DNA of 64,000 nucleotides from an uncultured Sulfuricurvum sp. (GTDB taxonomy: Bacteria; Campylobacterota; Campylobacteria; Campylobacterales; Sulfurimonadaceae), in contig CAIMUF010000052.1 in the NCBI GenBank assembly GCA_903844635.1, forward strand, positions 840 to 64,839, in the 5' to 3' direction. The notes under the pieces are model-generated. The model saw nothing but the letters and a program-made list of their open reading frames with translations, made no database searches and was not told the DNA's origin. Made by a program: the position numbers and the translations under genes. Below, one piece after another: positions 3,352-62,759 of this stretch (its first letter is position 1; each line of letters begins with the position of its first letter).

Positions 3352-4722
3352 CTAGACCTTGAGTTGGGTTTGTGCTTCTTGGATAAGCGCATTGAGTGCA
3401 TTTTCATAGCGTACGGCTTCGGGCTCTTCGGTGGATTCAAAACGCGTTACTAGTACAGGAGTCGTATTGCTAGCGCGTACCAAACCCCATCCTTTATCAA
3501 ATATAACTCGAACACCGTCTACTTCAATAATCTCACGGATAGTTGGAAAATCAGCAGGAGGATTTTTTAAGAGTTCTTTGAGTTTATCGATGAGAGCAAA
3601 TTTTTCGTGCTCTGTCGTTTTGACTTTGATTTCTTCGGTGGAAAACACTTTTGGAAGTTTTGCAATTTCAGCATCAAGATCAATCCCGTCATGAATCAGT
3701 TCAAGCATCCGCAACGTTGCATAAATCGCATCGTCATATCCAAAATAACGATCCGCAAAGAAAACATGCCCGCTTACTTCACATGCCAAATCGGCATGCA
3801 GTTCTTTCATTTTGACTTTGAGATTGGAGTGCCCGGTTTTGTACATCACGGCCGTTGCACCGCGCTCACGTAACGTGTCGTACATCACTTGAGAACATTT
3901 CACTTCACCAATAACGATCGGATTTTTCATCTTCAGCGCAAATAACAGCGCCATCATGTCGCCTTTGATATTATTTTTGTGGGTCAATACCGCGATACGA
4001 TCACTGTCGCCGTCGTACGCAAAAGCAATATCGCCGCGCTCGGCTAACACTTTCTTAATATCATGAAGATTGTGCTCTTCACTAGGATCAGGGTGATGGT
4101 TTGGGAATGTTCCGTCTGGATCGACATAAATACCAAACGTATCCAGTTCAAGCGCACTGAAAATATCCACCAAACCTAGTCCTGCCACACCGTTACCGCA
4201 GTCATAAACAATCTTTTCTTTCATCCCGCGCAAATGTGCAAATTCTTTAATCATATAGGCTTTGTATCGACTCAAAGCATCGATTTCAACAACGTCACGC
4301 GGTGTTTTAAGAGGAAATGGAAGGATGTCAATCGTTCGCCCAAGAGCATAAATGGATTCACCGAAAAAAGGAAGTTTGTTAATGGTAATTTTAAACCCGT
4401 TGTATTCGCTCGGATTGTGAGAGCCGGTAATCATCACCGAAGCGCACGCCGTTTTTCCATCAAACTCTTGATAATTGCAAAAATAATTCACCGGAGTAGG
4501 AACCATCCCCATCCCCAAAACTTTCATACCGCCTGCATTCAGACCTGCTGTGAGATATTCAAACAAAATCGGAGAGTGAGAACGGGCATCATACCCAACT
4601 GCAACGTATTCACCGTACGGACGCATCTCATCAGCAAGAGCATAACCCAAGCGAGTAATCGTCTCTTCGTTAAGCTCTTCTTCAAAAATTCCCCGAATGT
4701 CATATTCACGATAAATACTCAT
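3352..4722 (-). CDS. Phosphomannomutase/phosphoglucomutase
   Basis: YREYDIRG, TGSHNP, DGDSDR, GLVRASNT motifs. Confidence 0.93.
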   Translation of the reverse strand: MSIYREYDIRGIFEEELNEETITRLGYALADEMRPYGEYVAVGYDARSHSPILFEYLTAGLNAGGMKVLGMGMVPTPVNYFCNYQEFDGKTACASVMITGSHNPSEYNGFKITINKLPFFGESIYALGRTIDILPFPLKTPRDVVEIDALSRYKAYMIKEFAHLRGMKEKIVYDCGNGVAGLGLVDIFSALELDTFGIYVDPDGTFPNHHPDPSEEHNLHDIKKVLAERGDIAFAYDGDSDRIAVLTHKNNIKGDMMALLFALKMKNPIVIGEVKCSQVMYDTLRERGATAVMYKTGHSNLKVKMKELHADLACEVSGHVFFADRYFGYDDAIYATLRMLELIHDGIDLDAEIAKLPKVFSTEEIKVKTTEHEKFALIDKLKELLKNPPADFPTIREIIEVDGVRVIFDKGWGLVRASNTTPVLVTRFESTEEPEAVRYENALNALIQEAQTQLKV

Positions 4723-4849
4723 AGCTGCCCTTTTAAATCAATATTAACAAATTATACAACGCGGTGGTTAAAAGAGTCTTTTGTGGAGCAAAAAAGCCCC
4801 ATGGAAGAATAGTAAAGAAGTGTTAAGAAAGTTTAAAAAGCGCGGATTC

Positions 4850-4993
4850 TGCGCGTGGGCTTCCCGCCGAGGGAAACCTAGTGTTAACATGAGAAGCGTA
4901 ATCGAAGTGAGAAACCTCACGTCGATAGGTTCGGAACCAAAGGCGAAGGGCTTGCCCCGCCAAAGGCTAAGTCGGGACGCGTTCCGATGACGT
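4850..4993 (+). repeat. Structured ~140-bp intergenic element, copy 1 (possible ncRNA or non-autonomous mobile element)
   Basis: Homologous to 6289-6424 with compensatory changes in several hairpins; identical cores GTGAGAAACCTCAC and GATAGGTTCGGAACC. Confidence 0.8.
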
Positions 4994-4999
4994 ATAAAA

Positions 5000-6178
5000 T
5001 TAAATTGCGCGTTTAAACTCAGGATAGGCTTCGAGTCCGCATTCGCTGACATCAAGACCCTGCTGCTGTTCCTCATCGGTTGCACGGAATACAAACACTT
5101 TATTGATAAGGTAAATAACAACAAACGAAACAGTGAATACAAACACGGCAATCTCCGCTACCCCTTTAAGCTGATTCAAAAAGGTGATATTTTTCGCCGC
5201 ATCGCTCGCAAAAATTCCCACGGCAAGTGTTCCCCAAATACCGTTGACGAGGTGAACAGAAAGCGCTCCTACAGGATCATCAATACGCACTTTATCAAAC
5301 AACGGAATCGCAACAACAACTAAAATACCGCCGATGAAACCTACGGCTAACGCGTCATAAAGGGTAAATAAATGTGCCCCAGCCGTTACCGCAACCAATC
5401 CGCCCAGTGCACCGTTGAGAATCATCGTGATATCAAAAAGTTTATAGCGGACATAAATTAAAATTCCGGCAGATATTGCTCCGGCAAGACCTGCAATATT
5501 GGTGTTAAAAATCGTCAGTGCGACACTGTCTGCTAACTCTTTGGTCGAAATACCACCCACAGAACCGCCGTTAAATCCAAACCATCCGATCCATAATAAC
5601 ATTGCGCCCAAAACGACGAGAGGAATATTGGATGCAGGAATCACACGCATTTGACCATGAACGTATCGACCCTTCCGTGATCCGATGACTAGAATTGCTG
5701 CGAGCAACGCCCATCCGCCTGTGGAATGGATCACGGTAGAACCCGCCAAATCAACCATATTCAAATCAAAAATTGTCTCTTTAAGCCAATCACTTCCCCA
5801 GCTGATATTAACGGCTGTCGGATAGATAAATGCACCCATAATAATGGTAAACAGCGTTAACGGCAACAATCTTGTCCGTTCACCGACACCACCGCTCATA
5901 ATGTTAATCGCTTTACCGACAAATGCCATCTGAAACATAAAAAATGCCCATTTGCTCATCGTCGCACTTTGCAATTCACCAAAAGCCAATGTGTATCCGA
6001 CCAAAATAAACGCCATAGAAGCCACAGCATAAATCATCACGTTGACAGTCAAGACACTGGAAACGTTTTTTGTCCGAACCAAACCTGCTTCGAGCATCGC
6101 GAATCCGGGAACCATTAAAATAATAAGAGTAATAGAGAAGAGGGTAAAGAGGGTATCGATAACGTACGCAGTATCCAT
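5000..6178 (-). CDS. amt: Ammonium transporter (Amt family, short paralog)
   Basis: DLAGSTVIH, WFGFNGGS, DDPVGALSVH; twin His retained. Confidence 0.93.
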   Translation of the reverse strand: MDTAYVIDTLFTLFSITLIILMVPGFAMLEAGLVRTKNVSSVLTVNVMIYAVASMAFILVGYTLAFGELQSATMSKWAFFMFQMAFVGKAINIMSGGVGERTRLLPLTLFTIIMGAFIYPTAVNISWGSDWLKETIFDLNMVDLAGSTVIHSTGGWALLAAILVIGSRKGRYVHGQMRVIPASNIPLVVLGAMLLWIGWFGFNGGSVGGISTKELADSVALTIFNTNIAGLAGAISAGILIYVRYKLFDITMILNGALGGLVAVTAGAHLFTLYDALAVGFIGGILVVVAIPLFDKVRIDDPVGALSVHLVNGIWGTLAVGIFASDAAKNITFLNQLKGVAEIAVFVFTVSFVVIYLINKVFVFRATDEEQQQGLDVSECGLEAYPEFKRAI

Positions 6179-6210
6179 GCAACACCTTTGATTTTAAACT
6201 AAAGGTGTGC

Positions 6211-6265
6211 ATTATATATCCAATTAAATGGATTTGAGAAGAAGTAGTGATTAAAATTTAATCAC
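6211..6265 (-). promoter_or_regulatory. Putative sigma70 -10 (TATAAT, 6211-6216) and upstream palindromic operator (6247-6265) of amt
   Basis: GTGATTAAAATTTAATCAC near-perfect palindrome 30 nt upstream of the -10; 18/19 identical copy at 8305-8323. Confidence 0.6.
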
Positions 6266-6288
6266 TATAGAAAAAAAGCACATAAATG

Positions 6289-6424
6289 TGCGCGGGCTCA
6301 CTGCCGAAGTGAACCCAGTGTTAGCATGAGAACCGTCATCGGAGTGAGAAACCTCACTCTGATAGGTTCGGAACCGAAAGCGAAGGTTCATCACGCTGAA
6401 GGCAGGGACGAGTTTCGATTGCGT
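6289..6424 (+). repeat. Structured ~140-bp intergenic element, copy 2
   Basis: Homologous to 4850-4993; abuts the PII gene stop codon. Confidence 0.8.
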
Positions 6425-6428
6425 GTTA

Positions 6429-6788
<360 letters not shown>

Positions 6789-6849
6789 TTAGAAAACTCA
6801 AGACTGTGGTCAAAAAATCTGCCTCGTAAAAGGCAAGCTTTAGTGCCAT

Positions 6850-6891
6850 AGCGGCTAGCGTAGCCAAAGGGATGAATTCCTTTGGCGTTCA
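6850..6891. repeat. 42-bp double-hairpin REP-like repeat, copy 1
   Basis: AGCGGCTAGCGTAGCCAAAGGGATGAATTCCTTTGGCGTTCA; 37/42 identical to 62707-62748. Confidence 0.8.
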
Positions 6892-6899
6892 ATTATGGT

Positions 6900-8228
6900 T
6901 TATAAATTAAACCCACGTTCACCGTGAACTGATTCATCAAGACCCATGCTCTCTTCTTCTTCATTCACACGTGATCCACCTGTAATTGCCATAGCGATAT
7001 AATACACTACAACCGTTCCAATCAAGGTAAATGCACCAACAAGTGCTACCGATTCAAGTTGAACCATGATTTGTCCCATACGATCACCTGATGCTTTAAG
7101 AGGACCATCCCAAAGCAATGCTTTATCGTTTACAGCGAAGATACCCGTTGCAATCGCACCCCAAAGACCAGCGATAAAGTGAACACCAAACGCATCCAAA
7201 CTATCATCATAACCCAATTTCTTCTTCATAACCATGACACCGAAGAATGCAACGATTGCACCCGTAACCCCGATAATGAAAGCTCCTGGAACCAAAACAA
7301 ATCCTGCAGCTGGTGTAATCGCAACAAGTCCAGCAATGGCACCTGTAGCCGCACCTAGTAGTGTTGCTTTTTTGAATACCATATATTCCAATAAGATCCA
7401 TGTAATTGTAGCAATAGATGCAGCGATAGTTGTTGTCAAATACGCAACACCAGCGATTGCATTAGCACCAAACGCTGATCCGCCGTTAAAGCCGTACCAA
7501 CCGAACCATAGTAATCCTGCACCAAGAGCTGTCAAAATAACACTCGCAGGCTTCATCGCTGTTTTTGGATAACCGGCACGCTTGCCAACCAAAAGAGCTA
7601 ATACTAATCCAGCTAAACCACCATTCATATGAACAACGGTACCACCAGCGAAGTCAAGAGCACCTTCGTTGAAAAGGTAACCGCCACCCCATACCATGTG
7701 TGCAATAGGAGCATAAACTGCCAAAACCCAAATCGCAACAAACACCATCCATGTAGAGAACTTTATACGCTCAATTACTGAACCTGCTGCAATTGCAACA
7801 GTAATGGCTGCAAACGTCCCTTGGAAAACAACAAACACATATTTAGGGTAAAGCTGACCCAATTGAACACTAGAAAAATCTGTCCAAGCGATACCATTAA
7901 GCATAACATTGCCAAATCCGCCGATCACTTGATTTAACGGTCCTTCCATTGTCCCAAACGCGAGTGAGTATCCTGCGATAATCCAAACGATAAAACCAAC
8001 AGTAAACGCACCAAAAACCATCGCGTAGGTATTAAGCACATTTTTTGCTCTCGTCATACCGCCGTAAAACAGCGCCAATCCAACTGGTGTCATAAGCATT
8101 ACTAATGCTGTTGACATCATCATCCACGCTGTATCACCTGAATTAAGTACAGGTTCGACCACAGCAGCCGCATCTTCTGCCAATGCCAACATAGGCAAAA
8201 ACAATAATGATAGAATGAATTTCTTCAT
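6900..8228 (-). CDS. amtB: Ammonium transporter AmtB
   Basis: Signal-like N-terminus, NSGDTAW, DFAGGTVVH, WYGFNGGS, DDSLDAFGVH. Confidence 0.95.
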   Translation of the reverse strand: MKKFILSLLFLPMLALAEDAAAVVEPVLNSGDTAWMMMSTALVMLMTPVGLALFYGGMTRAKNVLNTYAMVFGAFTVGFIVWIIAGYSLAFGTMEGPLNQVIGGFGNVMLNGIAWTDFSSVQLGQLYPKYVFVVFQGTFAAITVAIAAGSVIERIKFSTWMVFVAIWVLAVYAPIAHMVWGGGYLFNEGALDFAGGTVVHMNGGLAGLVLALLVGKRAGYPKTAMKPASVILTALGAGLLWFGWYGFNGGSAFGANAIAGVAYLTTTIAASIATITWILLEYMVFKKATLLGAATGAIAGLVAITPAAGFVLVPGAFIIGVTGAIVAFFGVMVMKKKLGYDDSLDAFGVHFIAGLWGAIATGIFAVNDKALLWDGPLKASGDRMGQIMVQLESVALVGAFTLIGTVVVYYIAMAITGGSRVNEEEESMGLDESVHGERGFNL

Positions 8229-8267
8229 CTTTACTCCTTTAAATGTGTTATCAAAAACTCAACCACC

Positions 8268-8323
8268 ATTCTACATACAAAACAAAGCAGTTATCTGTGA
8301 ATAAGTGCTTAAAATTTAATCAC
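8268..8323 (-). promoter_or_regulatory. Putative -10 (TAGAAT, 8268-8273) and palindromic operator (8305-8323) of amtB
   Basis: GTGCTTAAAATTTAATCAC lies 31 nt upstream of the -10, mirroring the amt promoter. Confidence 0.55.
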
Positions 8324-8396
8324 CTTCCTCTCTTATGAAGATTAAGTCTCATTTAGCTATAATCGAAAACTTAATCTTCACTTTTTCGGGGACTGC

Positions 8397-10886
8397 ATGA
8401 ACGATTTGCTAGACAACAGCGAAATTCACGATATTAATATAGAAGACACACTCAAGAGTAGTTATCTCGACTATTCGATGAGTGTTATCATCGGGCGGGC
8501 ATTGCCTGACGTACGTGATGGGCTTAAACCGGTTCATAGACGTATTTTGTACGCGATGGACAAACTTAGCCTATCTGCAGGTGCTAAATACAAAAAATCA
8601 GCCCGTATCGTCGGTGACGTAATCGGTCAATACCATCCACATGGTGATACTTCGGTTTATGATGCACTTGTCCGTATGGCACAGCCCTTTGCGATGCGTA
8701 TGCCGCTCGTAGATGGTCAAGGAAACTTTGGTTCCGTCGATGGAGACAATGCAGCAGCCATGCGTTATACCGAAGCACGTATGACCCGCTATGCAGGTGA
8801 ACTTCTCAAAGATCTTGAAAAAGATACCGTCAATATGGTAGAAAACTACGATGGCACAACCGTTGAGCCTGTCGTTCTTCCTGCACGTGTCCCTAATCTT
8901 CTTATTAATGGTTCTAGTGGTATTGCAGTCGGTATGGCTACGAATATCCCTCCTCACAATCCAAAAGAAGTTCTGAGTGCATTGGTCCATCTTATGGACA
9001 ACCCTAATGCTTCTCTCATCGAGATCATGCAGTTTATTAAAGCCCCTGATTTTCCTACCGGTGGAACGATTTACGGTAAAAAAGGGATTTTGGACGCTTA
9101 CGAAACGGGTCGTGGACGTATCCGCGTACGCGCTAAGACTCATATCGAGAAAAAAGCCAATAAAGACGTTATCGTCATCGATGAGCTTCCGTATCAAGTC
9201 AATAAAGCACGTCTTATCGAAACCATCGCTGATTTAGTTAAAGATAAATACATCGAAGGAATCAGCGAAATTCGTGATGAATCGGATCGCGAAGGAATTC
9301 GTGTCGTAATCGAGCTTAAACGTGATGCGATGAGCGAAATCGTTCTCAACAATCTTTACAAATCAACCAATATGGAAACAACATTCGGGATTATTATGCT
9401 TTCGGTTTTCAACCAAGAGCCTCGTATATTCTCACTCCTTGAAATGCTGGGTCATTTTGTCAATCACCGTAAAACTGTCATTATCCGCCGTACGATTTTT
9501 GACCTTGAAAAAGCCAAAGCCCGTGCACACATCTTGGAAGGTTTGAAAAAAGCACTTGATCATATTGAAGCCATCATAAAACTTATTCGTGCAAGCAAAG
9601 ATGGCGAAAACGCTAAAAATGGACTGATTGAAGAGTTTGGTTTCTCTCCTATCCAAGCCCAAGCGATTTTGGATATGCGTCTTCAACGTTTAACAGGATT
9701 AGAGCGTGAAAAAATCGAAAATGAACTCAAAGAAATTTTGGCACACGTTGAATATCTAGAGAGCATACTTAGAAGCGAAGAAGTTCTCAAAGATATTATC
9801 AAAGGTGAATTTGTTGAACTCTTAGAACAGTTTAATATCGATCGCGTCACCGAAATCGAAGACAACTATGACGACATCAACATCGAAGACTTGATCCCAA
9901 ATGAGCCAATGGTTGTTACCATCTCTCACCGTGGTTACATCAAGCGTGTCCCTCTTGTAGCGTACGAAAAACAAAAACGTGGTGGCAAAGGCAAAATCGC
10001 TGCAACCACCTACGATGATGACTTTATCGAAAAATTCTTTACGTGTAATACTCATGATACCTTGATGTTCGTCACCGATCGCGGACAACTCCACTGGCTC
10101 AAAGTGTACAAAATCCCAGAAGGATCACGTACCGCCAAAGGTAAAGCGGTTGTCAATCTTATCAACCTCGAAGCGGATGAGAAAATTCGTTCAATCATCC
10201 CTACAAGCGATTTTGATGAAAACAAATCTCTTGTATTCTTTACTCAAAACGGAGTCGTCAAACGTACAGCTCTGAGTGAGTTTTCAAATGTTCGAAGCAA
10301 TGGAGTGCGTGCGATTGTTCTTGATGATGATGATGCTCTGATTACAGCCTACATCGCAACCGAAGAGACAAAATACCTCTTTATCGTTACGAAATATGCA
10401 CAATGTATCAAATTTGAGATTGAAAAAACCAGAGATCAAGGACGCAGCACTCGCGGTGTTCGTGGTATCAAGTTTAAAATCGAAGGTGACGTAGTAGTAG
10501 ACGCTAACATCATTAAAAATGATGAGCAAGAAATCTTGATGGTGAGTGAAAAAGGGATCGGGAAACGTACAACTGCCGAAGAATACCGTCTCACTAATCG
10601 TGCAGGAACAGGCGTCATCGCAATGAAACTCAATGCTAAAACCGGAACAACGGTTGTAGGATGTCTCATGGTCGATGAAACGATGGATATGATGGCACTG
10701 ACTAAAGCGGGGAAAATGATCCGTGTTGATATGCAAACCATTGCAAAATCCGGACGCAATACCAGCGGTGTTTATATCATCAAAGGTGATGATGTCAAAA
10801 GTATTTCCCGTTGTCCGAAAAAAGAAGATGACGATGAAGATGGAGAAGAAGGTGAAATCGAAGAAGGAACATTAGGTTTGGAATAG
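8397..10886 (+). CDS. gyrA: DNA gyrase subunit A
   Basis: [22 protein letters not shown], GyrA-box QKRGGKG, acidic tail. Confidence 0.98.
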
Positions 10887-61725: not shown

Positions 61726-62699
61726 AAATTCTCATCATTCTCCCCAACTGGCTGGGTGATGCCATCATGGCAACCCCTGCTATTGAAGCTCTCTGCGTTA
61801 TATATCCCGATGCACAACTTACCTTGGTAGGCTCGTATGTAAGCATCGAAGCGCTTAAACATCATCCGCAATGTCTCCGTTCTTATGTCGATGAGACGAA
61901 AAAAGAGGGCAATCGCTTTCTCAATACCTACCGCTTTGCAAAAGAGCTTGGGGTTCATGATATGGCGATCACGTTTCGCAATCAGCTCCACTCCTCACTT
62001 TTGCTTTGCTGTAGCGGTACACCCATCACCGCAGGACGAGCAAGTTGGCATTCTCATCTTCTTTTAACGCATGCCATCAAACCTGCACATCCCAGCCATC
62101 TTGTAGAGCAATACCGTGACATTGCCCAAAGTCTAAGTGAAAAACCACTCGAAATCGGACATTTAAAACTTCATATCAAGCCTCACATCTTTGAGCGTCC
62201 AACATTGGGAATTAATCCGGGAGCAACATATGGAAGTGCCAAACGATGGTATCCTGAGAAATTTGCCGAAGTAGCCCGTGCCTTTAGTGATTCCTATGAG
62301 ATTGTTTTATTCGGAGGTCCTAATGAAGTGGAGATGGCAAATGATATTGAAGCACGTTTAGATGGAGTAAATGTTATGAATCTGGCAGGGAAGACATCGG
62401 TTCAAGAACTGTGTGCGAGGATTGGGGGACTTGATCTCTTTGTCACCAACGACAGCGGTCCGATGCACGCAGCGGCGGCTTATCAGGTTCCTACGGTTGC
62501 GATTTTCGGTCCGACGCGTTATTTGGAAACGTCTCAATGGATGAATGAAAAAAATGTGATTGTCCGACATGATATGGAGTGCGCACCGTGCATGAAGCGA
62601 GAATGTCCGCTGGGACATCATGAGTGCATGAAGAGTATCACTGCTCAAGAAGTTATTGAAGCAACTAAAAAAATCTGCCTTGAGCGAGGCAAGCTTTAA
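61722..62699 (+). CDS. waaF: Lipopolysaccharide heptosyltransferase II
   Basis: LPNWLGDAIM, NPGATYGSAKRW, TNDSGPMH. Confidence 0.92.
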   Translation: MKILIILPNWLGDAIMATPAIEALCVIYPDAQLTLVGSYVSIEALKHHPQCLRSYVDETKKEGNRFLNTYRFAKELGVHDMAITFRNQLHSSLLLCCSGTPITAGRASWHSHLLLTHAIKPAHPSHLVEQYRDIAQSLSEKPLEIGHLKLHIKPHIFERPTLGINPGATYGSAKRWYPEKFAEVARAFSDSYEIVLFGGPNEVEMANDIEARLDGVNVMNLAGKTSVQELCARIGGLDLFVTNDSGPMHAAAAYQVPTVAIFGPTRYLETSQWMNEKNVIVRHDMECAPCMKRECPLGHHECMKSITAQEVIEATKKICLERGKL

Positions 62700-62706
62700 T
62701 AGCCTA

Positions 62707-62748
62707 AGCGGCTAGCGTAGCCAAAGGAATATATCCCTTTGGCATTCA
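62707..62748. repeat. 42-bp double-hairpin REP-like repeat, copy 2
   Basis: 37/42 identical to 6850-6891. Confidence 0.8.
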
Positions 62749-62759
62749 CAATAAATAGT

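Follow-up and report, generated by a model that had tools for sequence, protein, structure and literature searches.

What kind of sequence are the two structured elements that lie almost against the stop codons of an ammonium transporter gene (amt1) and a PII gene (glnK) in an uncultured Sulfuricurvum sp.? Both occur in a stretch of 64,000 nt (contig CAIMUF010000052.1, positions 840 to 64,839, assembly GCA_903844635.1; hereafter the window), which belongs to a 2.67-Mb Sulfuricurvum metagenome-assembled genome (MAG) of 86 contigs (G000; G, C and L numbers denote genomes, contigs and loci). An earlier note had described an unassigned multi-hairpin element of ~140 nt in two copies, and had proposed a new structured non-coding RNA or a mobile element of single-stranded DNA (ssDNA) hairpins. 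The evidence assembled below makes it probable that these copies, A and B, are long members of a dispersed, insertion-polymorphic, single-strand-structured intergenic repeat family of the Campylobacterales that is related to repetitive extragenic palindromic (REP) sequences. The mobile branch was the better half of the earlier proposal, as the family is dispersed, polymorphic in its insertions and carries a GTAG-tagged REP-type 3' half. The two copies are real, and the element is larger than described, with two further hairpins (P0 and P4), and far more numerous. The description as unassigned still applies: Rfam 15 gave nothing over the element at E<=10 (window 4000-9000) and nothing over five canonical short copies at E<=1, and ARAGORN found no tRNA or tmRNA in the tandem arrays that the repeat forms elsewhere.

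Alignment of both copies places copy A at 4835-4993 and copy B at 6271-6424, with 84% column identity (parts in Table 1). They stand where the earlier note had put them and share helices with compensatory changes, and their 3' ends (4972-4993 and 6405-6424) consist of P4 and the motif GAT..CGT, the conserved ..CGT closing at 4993 and 6424, that is, 6 nt from the amt1 stop codon (5000) and 4 nt from that of glnK (6429), as had been noticed. Pair counts over 17 long copies from ten Sulfuricurvum genomes, along with RNAalifold on the four long copies of the window's genome, back three helices of the long form: P1 (GGG.C-stem-GCCGA-stem-A.CCY), P2 (the second helix of the note plus an outer stem GAAKC/GRTTC) and P3 (an extension of its fourth helix). 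In this model, 91.8% of cells pair and both sides change in 22 of 38 pairs, a result reached by 0/500 shuffles, and sliding the 3' partners by 1-3 columns lowers pairing to 31-46%. The first, second and fourth helices of the note (now P1, P2b and P3) are therefore borne out by covariation with more homologs. The third, GGTT-CGG-AACC, is present in its letters but fails by covariation, pair 100/108 being G-C in 11 and A.C in 5 of the 17 copies; it was dropped for the outer P2 stem (P2a), which extends the second helix and whose pair 66/100 is C-G in 10 copies and U-A in 5. The claim that G-T pairs favour folding of the + strand also held, with G.U to A.C at 31:9 on the + strand of the long copies and 128:14 in 73 short copies.

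The short copies define a core of 69 nt that has no P2-P3. Their layout runs A-run, P0, P1 with the loop GCCGA, a mini-hairpin (AGYGTTARC / GYGUUARC), GTAG, P4 and CGT; the A-run and the variable GC hairpin P0 usually precede the core, and P0 has covarying stems in nearly all copies. P1 and the mini-hairpin of copy A correspond to the 5' half of this order-wide core. In an alignment of 73 copies from at least eight genera (A9), 91.5% of cells are paired and double changes occur in 16/18 pairs, which again none of 500 shuffles reaches. P4, an imperfect 10-bp palindrome, includes a bulged base and a G.T(U) that is conserved; double changes occur in nine of its ten pairs, and 53/71 copies have G.U at pair 46/85. 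The tag (C)GTAG stands directly 5' of P4 in ~70/73 copies, as it does in a reduced member of the window (6860-6863). Likewise, pair Y27-R32 of the mini-hairpin is found as U-A (54), C-G (12) and U.G (4), giving a GUUA mini-hairpin. Single-stranded segments, namely the loop GCCGA and AGYGUUARCGUAG, are conserved across families of the order. Judged from the pairing pattern, one strand, the window's + strand, is under structural constraint whether it is sense or antisense to its neighbours.

An additional covarying pair of the core, G3-C13 (G-C 64, A-U 7, G.U 2), is in competition with pair 3/23 of P1a; the latter is broken once G3 changes. If the 5' strand pairs with the loop of P1, as this implies, P1a cannot form at the same time, and this may represent a switch or a pseudoknot. 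At alignment columns 3/13 and 4/12, GGGC...GCCGA was seen to become GAGC...GCUGA in several genera and GGAC...GUCGA in one copy of the window's genome (C42:5977).

The family reaches far beyond the amt/glnK locus. The window's genome holds four long copies, i.e., A, B, a third close upstream of nifT and a fourth that separates rnhB from a polysaccharide deacetylase gene, together with ~25 short copies (nhmmer finds 27 copies of the core) and ~30 near-identical reduced REP-type relatives (BLAST), so that the family counts 50 members or more. Of the 27 core matches, 26 are intergenic, and the remaining one, a partial match, lies inside an open reading frame (ORF) from a crude ORF caller. Strong matches (83-139 bits) to a covariance model (CM) of the long form were obtained only in 10/37 Sulfuricurvum genomes, with 1-4 copies each and 17 in total; beyond these ten genomes, scores rise no higher than 47 bits, and many of the weak matches are the short form. 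The core CM, by contrast, finds copies in 33/151 Campylobacterales genomes and 17/69 genera, with a highest genome count of at least 33 copies, a range over many genera that is unusually wide for a REP or an element of the MITE type (miniature inverted-repeat transposable element). A literature search on the core motifs and on repeats in Sulfuricurvum, Arcobacter and Epsilonproteobacteria returned no description of the core. Units in other genera have additional, genus-specific hairpins on their flanks and can stand in tandem arrays that duplicate the Shine-Dalgarno (SD) sequence and start codon; these arrays arose by duplication that took in the gene start. At two such loci (L123 1030-1230 and L124 930-1300), each array repeat was seen to carry an SD sequence and, once, the first codons of the downstream gene. 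An apparent nif region of the window's genome (C14) is also rich in repeats, with the long copy 24 nt upstream of nifT/fixU (L002 1264-1473) and a reduced copy ~20 nt upstream of a gene that is PII-like by eye (L006 1550-1700).

That these repeats insert is documented by sites that are filled in some genomes and empty in others (Table 1). At empty glnK sites, 6 nt separate a conserved palindrome from the stop codon, and the P0 hairpin of copy B is missing there (G020, G005, G012, G023), so P0 is part of the inserted DNA. Filled rnhB/deacetylase sites are bracketed by a 14-bp repeat ATGGATGAGTATGC (up to ~20 bp with the A-run) that is single in empty sites. When the flanks were pooled, searched against four close relatives and then aligned pairwise, insertions specific to the window's genome with clean empty sites also came to light; these alignments further show a deletion remnant, a solo ATGACGTATCAAAAAT in G002. 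At one of them, upstream of fliQ (C38:100522), the duplication carries a stop codon and an SD sequence, so that neither gene loses its signals. The repeat inserts in both orientations at A/T-rich, TTAAA-like targets, many of them over a TAA stop codon, and the target duplications vary in length (~4-20 bp). Such order-wide conservation of a core, combined with ongoing species-specific insertion and without a recognisable transposase, is surprising.

Two of these sites deserve a closer description. At the rnhB site, the long copy (copy D; L004 1473-1670, C38) has 14 bp duplicated inside the 3' end of the polysaccharide deacetylase gene, which once overlapped the convergent rnhB; the insertion swapped the last ~11 codons of the gene for sequence read from the repeat. 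The post-stop-codon sites of glnK and amt1 are insertion hot spots. In other Sulfuricurvum genomes, the glnK site (L046, L048, L054, L057) and the amt1 site (L095, L097) harbor an unrelated repeat of ~70-110 nt, bounded by CGTCAT...ATGACG and with a GGATTCCC..GGGAAT hairpin inside; this repeat is CGTC-tagged REP or MITE-like.

The long form (140-170 nt) differs from the short one by an 85-nt two-hairpin module, P2-P3, placed between the mini-hairpin and P4 in the position of the GTAG tag. At the glnK, rnhB and fliQ sites, one insertion shares its flanks and its duplication between species, yet some species have it in the long form and others in the short form. At the glnK site, the short copy of G002 equals copy B over the first 53 nt (53/53) and then has GTAGTAATC where copy B has its 78-nt module. 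As this nonamer is not in copy B, no simple deletion or insertion converts either form into the other, and an internal segment must have been replaced, which would most simply be explained by recombination with another copy. Since short copies occur order-wide, and long ones only in part of a single genus, the module represents the derived state. P2 itself is similar to a degenerate REP unit (CGTA-ATCG...CGAT-AGG; cf. CGTAG-CCAATCG...CGAT-GGCGT). Related standalone units were observed elsewhere: in the interval from the fabG stop codon to an extended -10 (TGTTATAAT) before acpP, the window's genome has two tandem units (C74:236025-236185), each made of an A-run/hairpin/T-run terminator equivalent to P2, then AGCTTTGAAACCRAAGGC, a hairpin and GCCGAAG, and similar units occur in G002, G024 and G021. 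Examination of these fabG-acpP modules did not clarify the origin of P2-P3.

The relationship to REPs, of which the GTAG-tagged type is the nearest known kind, is seen in the 3' half of the core. GTAG-tagged REPs are found from alpha to epsilon Proteobacteria, frequently have G-T pairs in their stems, lie mostly downstream of ORFs, and co-occur with the CGTC type in Sulfurovum, according to the survey in which this super-family was defined (Di Nocera et al., 2013, PMC3733652). In E. coli, TnpA-REP processes REP as folded ssDNA and requires a bulged imperfect palindrome after a conserved motif (PMC8266576), which offers a DNA-level reason for constraint on one strand. Like GTAG-tagged REPs, the core of the short copies has in its 3' half an unpaired GTAG and then a bulged imperfect palindrome (20-30 nt) with G-T pairs, and the repeat is high-copy, extragenic, close to ORF ends and structured on one strand, with CGTC-tagged repeats alongside. 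Unlike them, it is always fused to a 36-nt 5' module, usually has an extra 5' hairpin and optionally carries the 85-nt module, and the long copies of the window have lost the tag. The family is apparently a composite REP-containing repeat whose 36-nt and 85-nt modules are undescribed in the literature searched and in Rfam. Its one-strand constraint would reflect ssDNA folding during mobilisation, as for GTAG-tagged REPs with HUH enzymes, and/or folding of RNA, and copies may be remodelled by recombination with one another.

Other modular repeats work in a comparable manner. BOX (boxA-boxB(n)-boxC) of Streptococcus pneumoniae, the bacterial interspersed mosaic elements (BIMEs) of E. coli, the enterobacterial repetitive intergenic consensus (ERIC) and the Correia elements of Neisseria are composite intergenic repeats with optional internal modules and hairpins, encode no transposase themselves, and may provide terminators or alter mRNA ends. 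By analogy, they appear to be the closest counterparts in mode of working: the present repeat is also modular, intergenic beside genes and rich in stable hairpins. However, it has no sequence relationship to them, its duplications vary in length and its core is kept over a far wider taxonomic range; unlike Correia or ERIC, it also has no terminal inverted repeats. A classical MITE was rejected on similar grounds, as the ends (A-run/P0 and ..CGT) are not inverted repeats and the duplications (~4-20 bp) are not of fixed size. Insertion of palindrome-associated transposable elements (PATEs) derived from IS200/IS605 produces no target duplication and takes place 3' of a fixed tetra- or pentanucleotide; the left and right hairpins of PATEs are similar. 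The repeat shares with PATEs and with remnants of TnpB omega-RNA its strand-specific ssDNA hairpins, its non-autonomy and its lack of terminal inverted repeats, whereas its P0 and P4 bear no relation to each other, its insertions do show duplications and the window's genome has no TnpA.

At gene boundaries, the 3' end of the repeat (..CGT plus a short A/T tail) lies ~0-50 nt from a start or a stop, about half each. Relative to their neighbours, 11 copies in the window's genome are same/same and 10 opposite/opposite; in other genera, 24 are 5'-UTR-like (UTR, untranslated region), 23 lie at convergent 3' ends and 26 are ambiguous or other. A cis-regulatory 5'-UTR element was rejected on this 50:50 orientation. 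Start-side neighbours include rpmF, rplQ, dnaK, groEL, fdx and fliQ, among others, and the long copies adjoin fliQ, ribH/kdsA, purE, an SDR gene, a fabI-like gene, a methyl-accepting chemotaxis protein (MCP) gene, a symporter gene, an actP-like gene and sugar-modifying genes; since these genes are unrelated, a nitrogen context is not a property of the family. In the amt/glnK region, all three repeats have the tail toward the stop codon and are antisense to amt2, glnK and amt1. A pattern scan called terminator-like sequences on the minus strand at P0 of copy B (6293-6278, GCGCACATTTATGTGC + TTTTTTT) and at the amt2-side element (6836-6819). The likeliest local effect is that the repeats supply plausible intrinsic terminators for amt2, glnK and amt1, ~90-160 nt past the stop codons, in which case the antisense element would join each 3'-UTR as a by-product of P0 and the A-run. 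Such repeats reshape gene ends, in the cases observed by supplying stop codons, SD copies and terminator-like hairpins and by altering a deacetylase C-terminus, and they confound the annotation of 3'-UTRs, small RNAs (sRNAs) and operon boundaries in MAGs.

Several observations weigh against placing the family among mobile REP relatives. Searches for Y1 transposases and reverse transcriptases identified no mobilising enzyme. A Y1/HUH transposase (PF01797) is not found in the window's genome and is present in 14/41 Sulfuricurvum genomes; at 17 Y1 loci examined, no core flanks the gene, 16 having no core within ~1.5-2 kb and the nearest lying at 1.6 kb (G146), and one genus has its Y1 genes next to gyrA, with unrelated inverted repeats of 20 bp on either side. 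The flagged long copies have no GTAG, P4 being preceded by TAAG in copy A and by no tag in copy B, and the 36-nt 5' half, kept order-wide and with its additional G3-C13 pair, exceeds the needs of any described REP, which hints at a cellular or RNA-level function. When, over all copies, the longest substring common to both flanks was compared with that of permuted pairs, target duplications did not stand out significantly (p=0.23); short duplications are inseparable from the A/T-rich background, and only those of 13-20 bp are unambiguous. As for the local effect, P0 of copy A (CGCGCAGAATCCGCGC + TTTTT) has the same form as that of copy B and was not called by the terminator scan, and a terminator role is assigned to P0 only putatively, by pattern match.

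With respect to the enzyme, Y1 genes occur in 10/13 carrier genomes tested and in 1/4 non-carrier controls. Unlike in REPtrons, no REP-flanked gene for a REP-associated tyrosine transposase (RAYT) was found, and in many carrier genomes a Y1 transposase is missing altogether. Mobilisation by a resident RAYT or IS200-type enzyme was considered and is unsupported by the distribution and flanks of Y1 genes. The gyrA-side gene, seen at L178, L180, L181, L183 and L186 as a single-copy, 252-aa Y1 (HUH) transposase-like gene next to a gyrA-like gene with 20-bp inverted repeats GGGGTCAGGGCTAAACTTTT, belongs to the class of RAYT flanked by terminal inverted repeats and shows no association with the core repeat. 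The family is a tractable system for how REP-like sequences spread without RAYT.

Could the core be first of all a structured RNA of the + strand, i.e., an sRNA in many copies, a signal for protein binding or for processing, or a self-cleaving ribozyme, with dispersal as a secondary feature and the long form as a lineage-specific expansion? The strength of the one-strand covariation, the conserved G.U pairs, the single-stranded segments kept across families and the G3-C13/P1a competition, with its suggestion of a pseudoknot or switch, all speak for this, as does the position of roughly half of the copies 12-50 nt upstream of an SD sequence and start codon (rpmF, rplQ, dnaK, groEL, fdx). Nevertheless, the other half is antisense at gene 3' ends, no promoter is conserved at a fixed distance, the sequence of P0 varies and no + strand terminator is evident; ssDNA folding accounts for the G.T pairs equally well, insertion polymorphism and 30-60 copies fit repeats rather than a gene family, and no Rfam ribozyme or sRNA matches. 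An RNA gene or signal of this kind is accordingly regarded as unlikely. A related, bolder possibility, which we consider quite unlikely, is that the conserved loop, the conserved G.U and the mutually exclusive G3-C13/P1a pairing make the core a working single-stranded nucleic-acid device that goes beyond selfish DNA, with P2-P3 as a separately transferable add-on. Such a device may be, for example, the recognition module of a mobilisation system that is neither RAYT nor reverse transcriptase, or a catalytic or protein-binding RNA used at gene boundaries.

Two further explanations concern the mode of spread and the location. A retroposon resembling a short interspersed nuclear element (SINE), whose transcript is reverse-transcribed at nicked A/T-rich targets, would suit the duplications of ~4 to 20 bp, the A-run that always adjoins P0, the variable A/T-rich filler after ..CGT and the copies that have no P0 or no P4. 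Against it, the junction geometry fits neither strand consistently, and a reverse transcriptase was not found in the window's genome and was found in only 2/13 carrier genomes tested (G172, G039), compared with 2/4 non-carrier controls; retroposition, rejected on this enzyme's absence from the window's genome and its 2/13 distribution among carriers, is very improbable. Even the row of three members behind amt2, glnK and amt1 and the fourth long copy just upstream of nifT hardly lend credence to a nitrogen-specific cis-regulator or antisense RNA of amt/glnK, or to the variant in which amt1 is a cassette bounded by two copies. The other long copies stand by fliQ, ribH/kdsA, purE, SDR, MCP, symporter and sugar-modifying genes, the short form by dozens of unrelated genes, and the glnK site is empty in four genomes (G020, G005, G012, G023) in which amt and glnK are intact. 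In G002, moreover, the amt1 3' site is empty and the glnK site short, so amt1 is not a cassette bounded by repeats. The link to nitrogen regulation that the earlier note had implied is therefore unsupported, with other long copies beside unrelated genes and orientation random, and a false lead is removed: there is no nitrogen riboswitch or sRNA at amt/glnK. A dispersed, REP-related repeat family remains the probable identity of copies A and B.

Table 1. Parts of the repeats, neighbouring genes and insertion sites. Positions are those of the window unless a contig (C) is named; CM, covariance model.
Feature	Position	Strand	Basis and remarks
Copy A, A-run (4835-4839) and hairpin P0 GCGCGGATTCTGCGCG (4840-4855)	4835..4855	+	Sequence; minus strand reads hairpin + TTTTT, downstream of amt1
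Copy A, P1 GGGC-TTCCC-GCCGA-GGGAA-A-CCT (4857-4879) and mini-hairpin AGTGTTAAC (4880-4888)	4857..4888	+	CM R2 match 4856-4914, 42 bits; covariation
Copy A, long-form module	4889..4966	+	RNAalifold, pair counts, CM R1 138.7 bits
Copy A, P2: outer stem GAAGC/GGTTC, inner stem ATCGAAGTGAG-AAAC-CTCACGTCGAT	4893-4932	+	
Copy A, P3: CC..GGCG-AA-GGG-CTTG-CCC-CGCC..GG	4937-4966	+	
Copy A, P4 TCGGGA-CGCG-TTCCGA with G.T (4972-4987) and tail TGACGT	4972..4993	+	Sequence; homologous to REP-type palindrome of short forms
Copy B, A-run (6271-6277) and P0 GCACATAAATGTGC (6278-6291)	6271..6291	+	Terminator-like on minus strand, downstream of glnK
Copy B, P1 (6294-6316) and mini-hairpin AGTGTTAGC (6317-6325; U.G variant)	6294..6325	+	CM R2 match 6293-6351, 41.6 bits
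Copy B, long-form module: P2 (6330-6369), P3 (6374-6402)	6326..6403	+	RNAalifold, CM, pair counts
Copy B, P4 GGGA-CGAG-TTTC with two G.T pairs (6405-16) and tail GATTGCGT	6405..6424	+	4 nt short of glnK stop codon
Third member, reduced REP type: A-run, P0 TGCCT-CGTAAA-AGGCA (6820-6835), AGCTTTAGTGCCATAGCGGCTAGC, GTAG tag (6860-6863), P4 palindrome CCAAAGGGATGAATTCCTTTGG (6864-6885), CGT	6812..6888	+	CM R2 6842-6894, E=1e-4; antisense to amt2, 11 nt from amt2 stop codon
Further reduced REP-type copy	62699..62751	+	CM R2 19 bits, E=0.005; BLAST matches to C52:63546-63587 and inverted partner (= window 62707-62748)
amt1, ammonium transporter	5000..6178	-	Pfam PF00909, E=1e-88; copies A and B on either side
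glnK/glnB-type PII gene	6429..6767	-	Pfam PF00543, E=5e-34
amt2, ammonium transporter	6900..8228	-	Pfam PF00909, E=1e-107
Insertion site, glnK 3' end			Long G000, G013; short G002, G018; empty G020, G005, G012, G023; unrelated CGTC-type repeats G004, G008, G006, G024
Insertion site, rnhB/deacetylase			Long G000, G002; short G008; empty G004, G015; deleted remnant G013
Insertion site, amt1 3' end			Long G000, G009; empty G002, G004
G000-specific insertion	C42:19321		Clean empty site; duplication TAAA or AATTAAA; copy without P0
G000-specific insertion upstream of fliQ	C38:100522		Clean empty site; duplication ~13 bp with upstream stop codon and downstream SD
G000-specific insertion	C5:9595		Clean empty site; duplication TTAAAA
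G000-specific insertion	C74:119575		Clean empty site

According to Pfam and the ORF list, the minus-strand gene order at the locus is amt2, glnK/PII, amt1 and a phosphogluco/mannomutase gene (3352-4722). Just upstream of a promoter-like site of amt1 lies the palindrome TGATTAAAATTTAATCA (6247-6265), which is kept genus-wide (L044-L057), with or without the adjoining repeat insertion, and is likely an operator.

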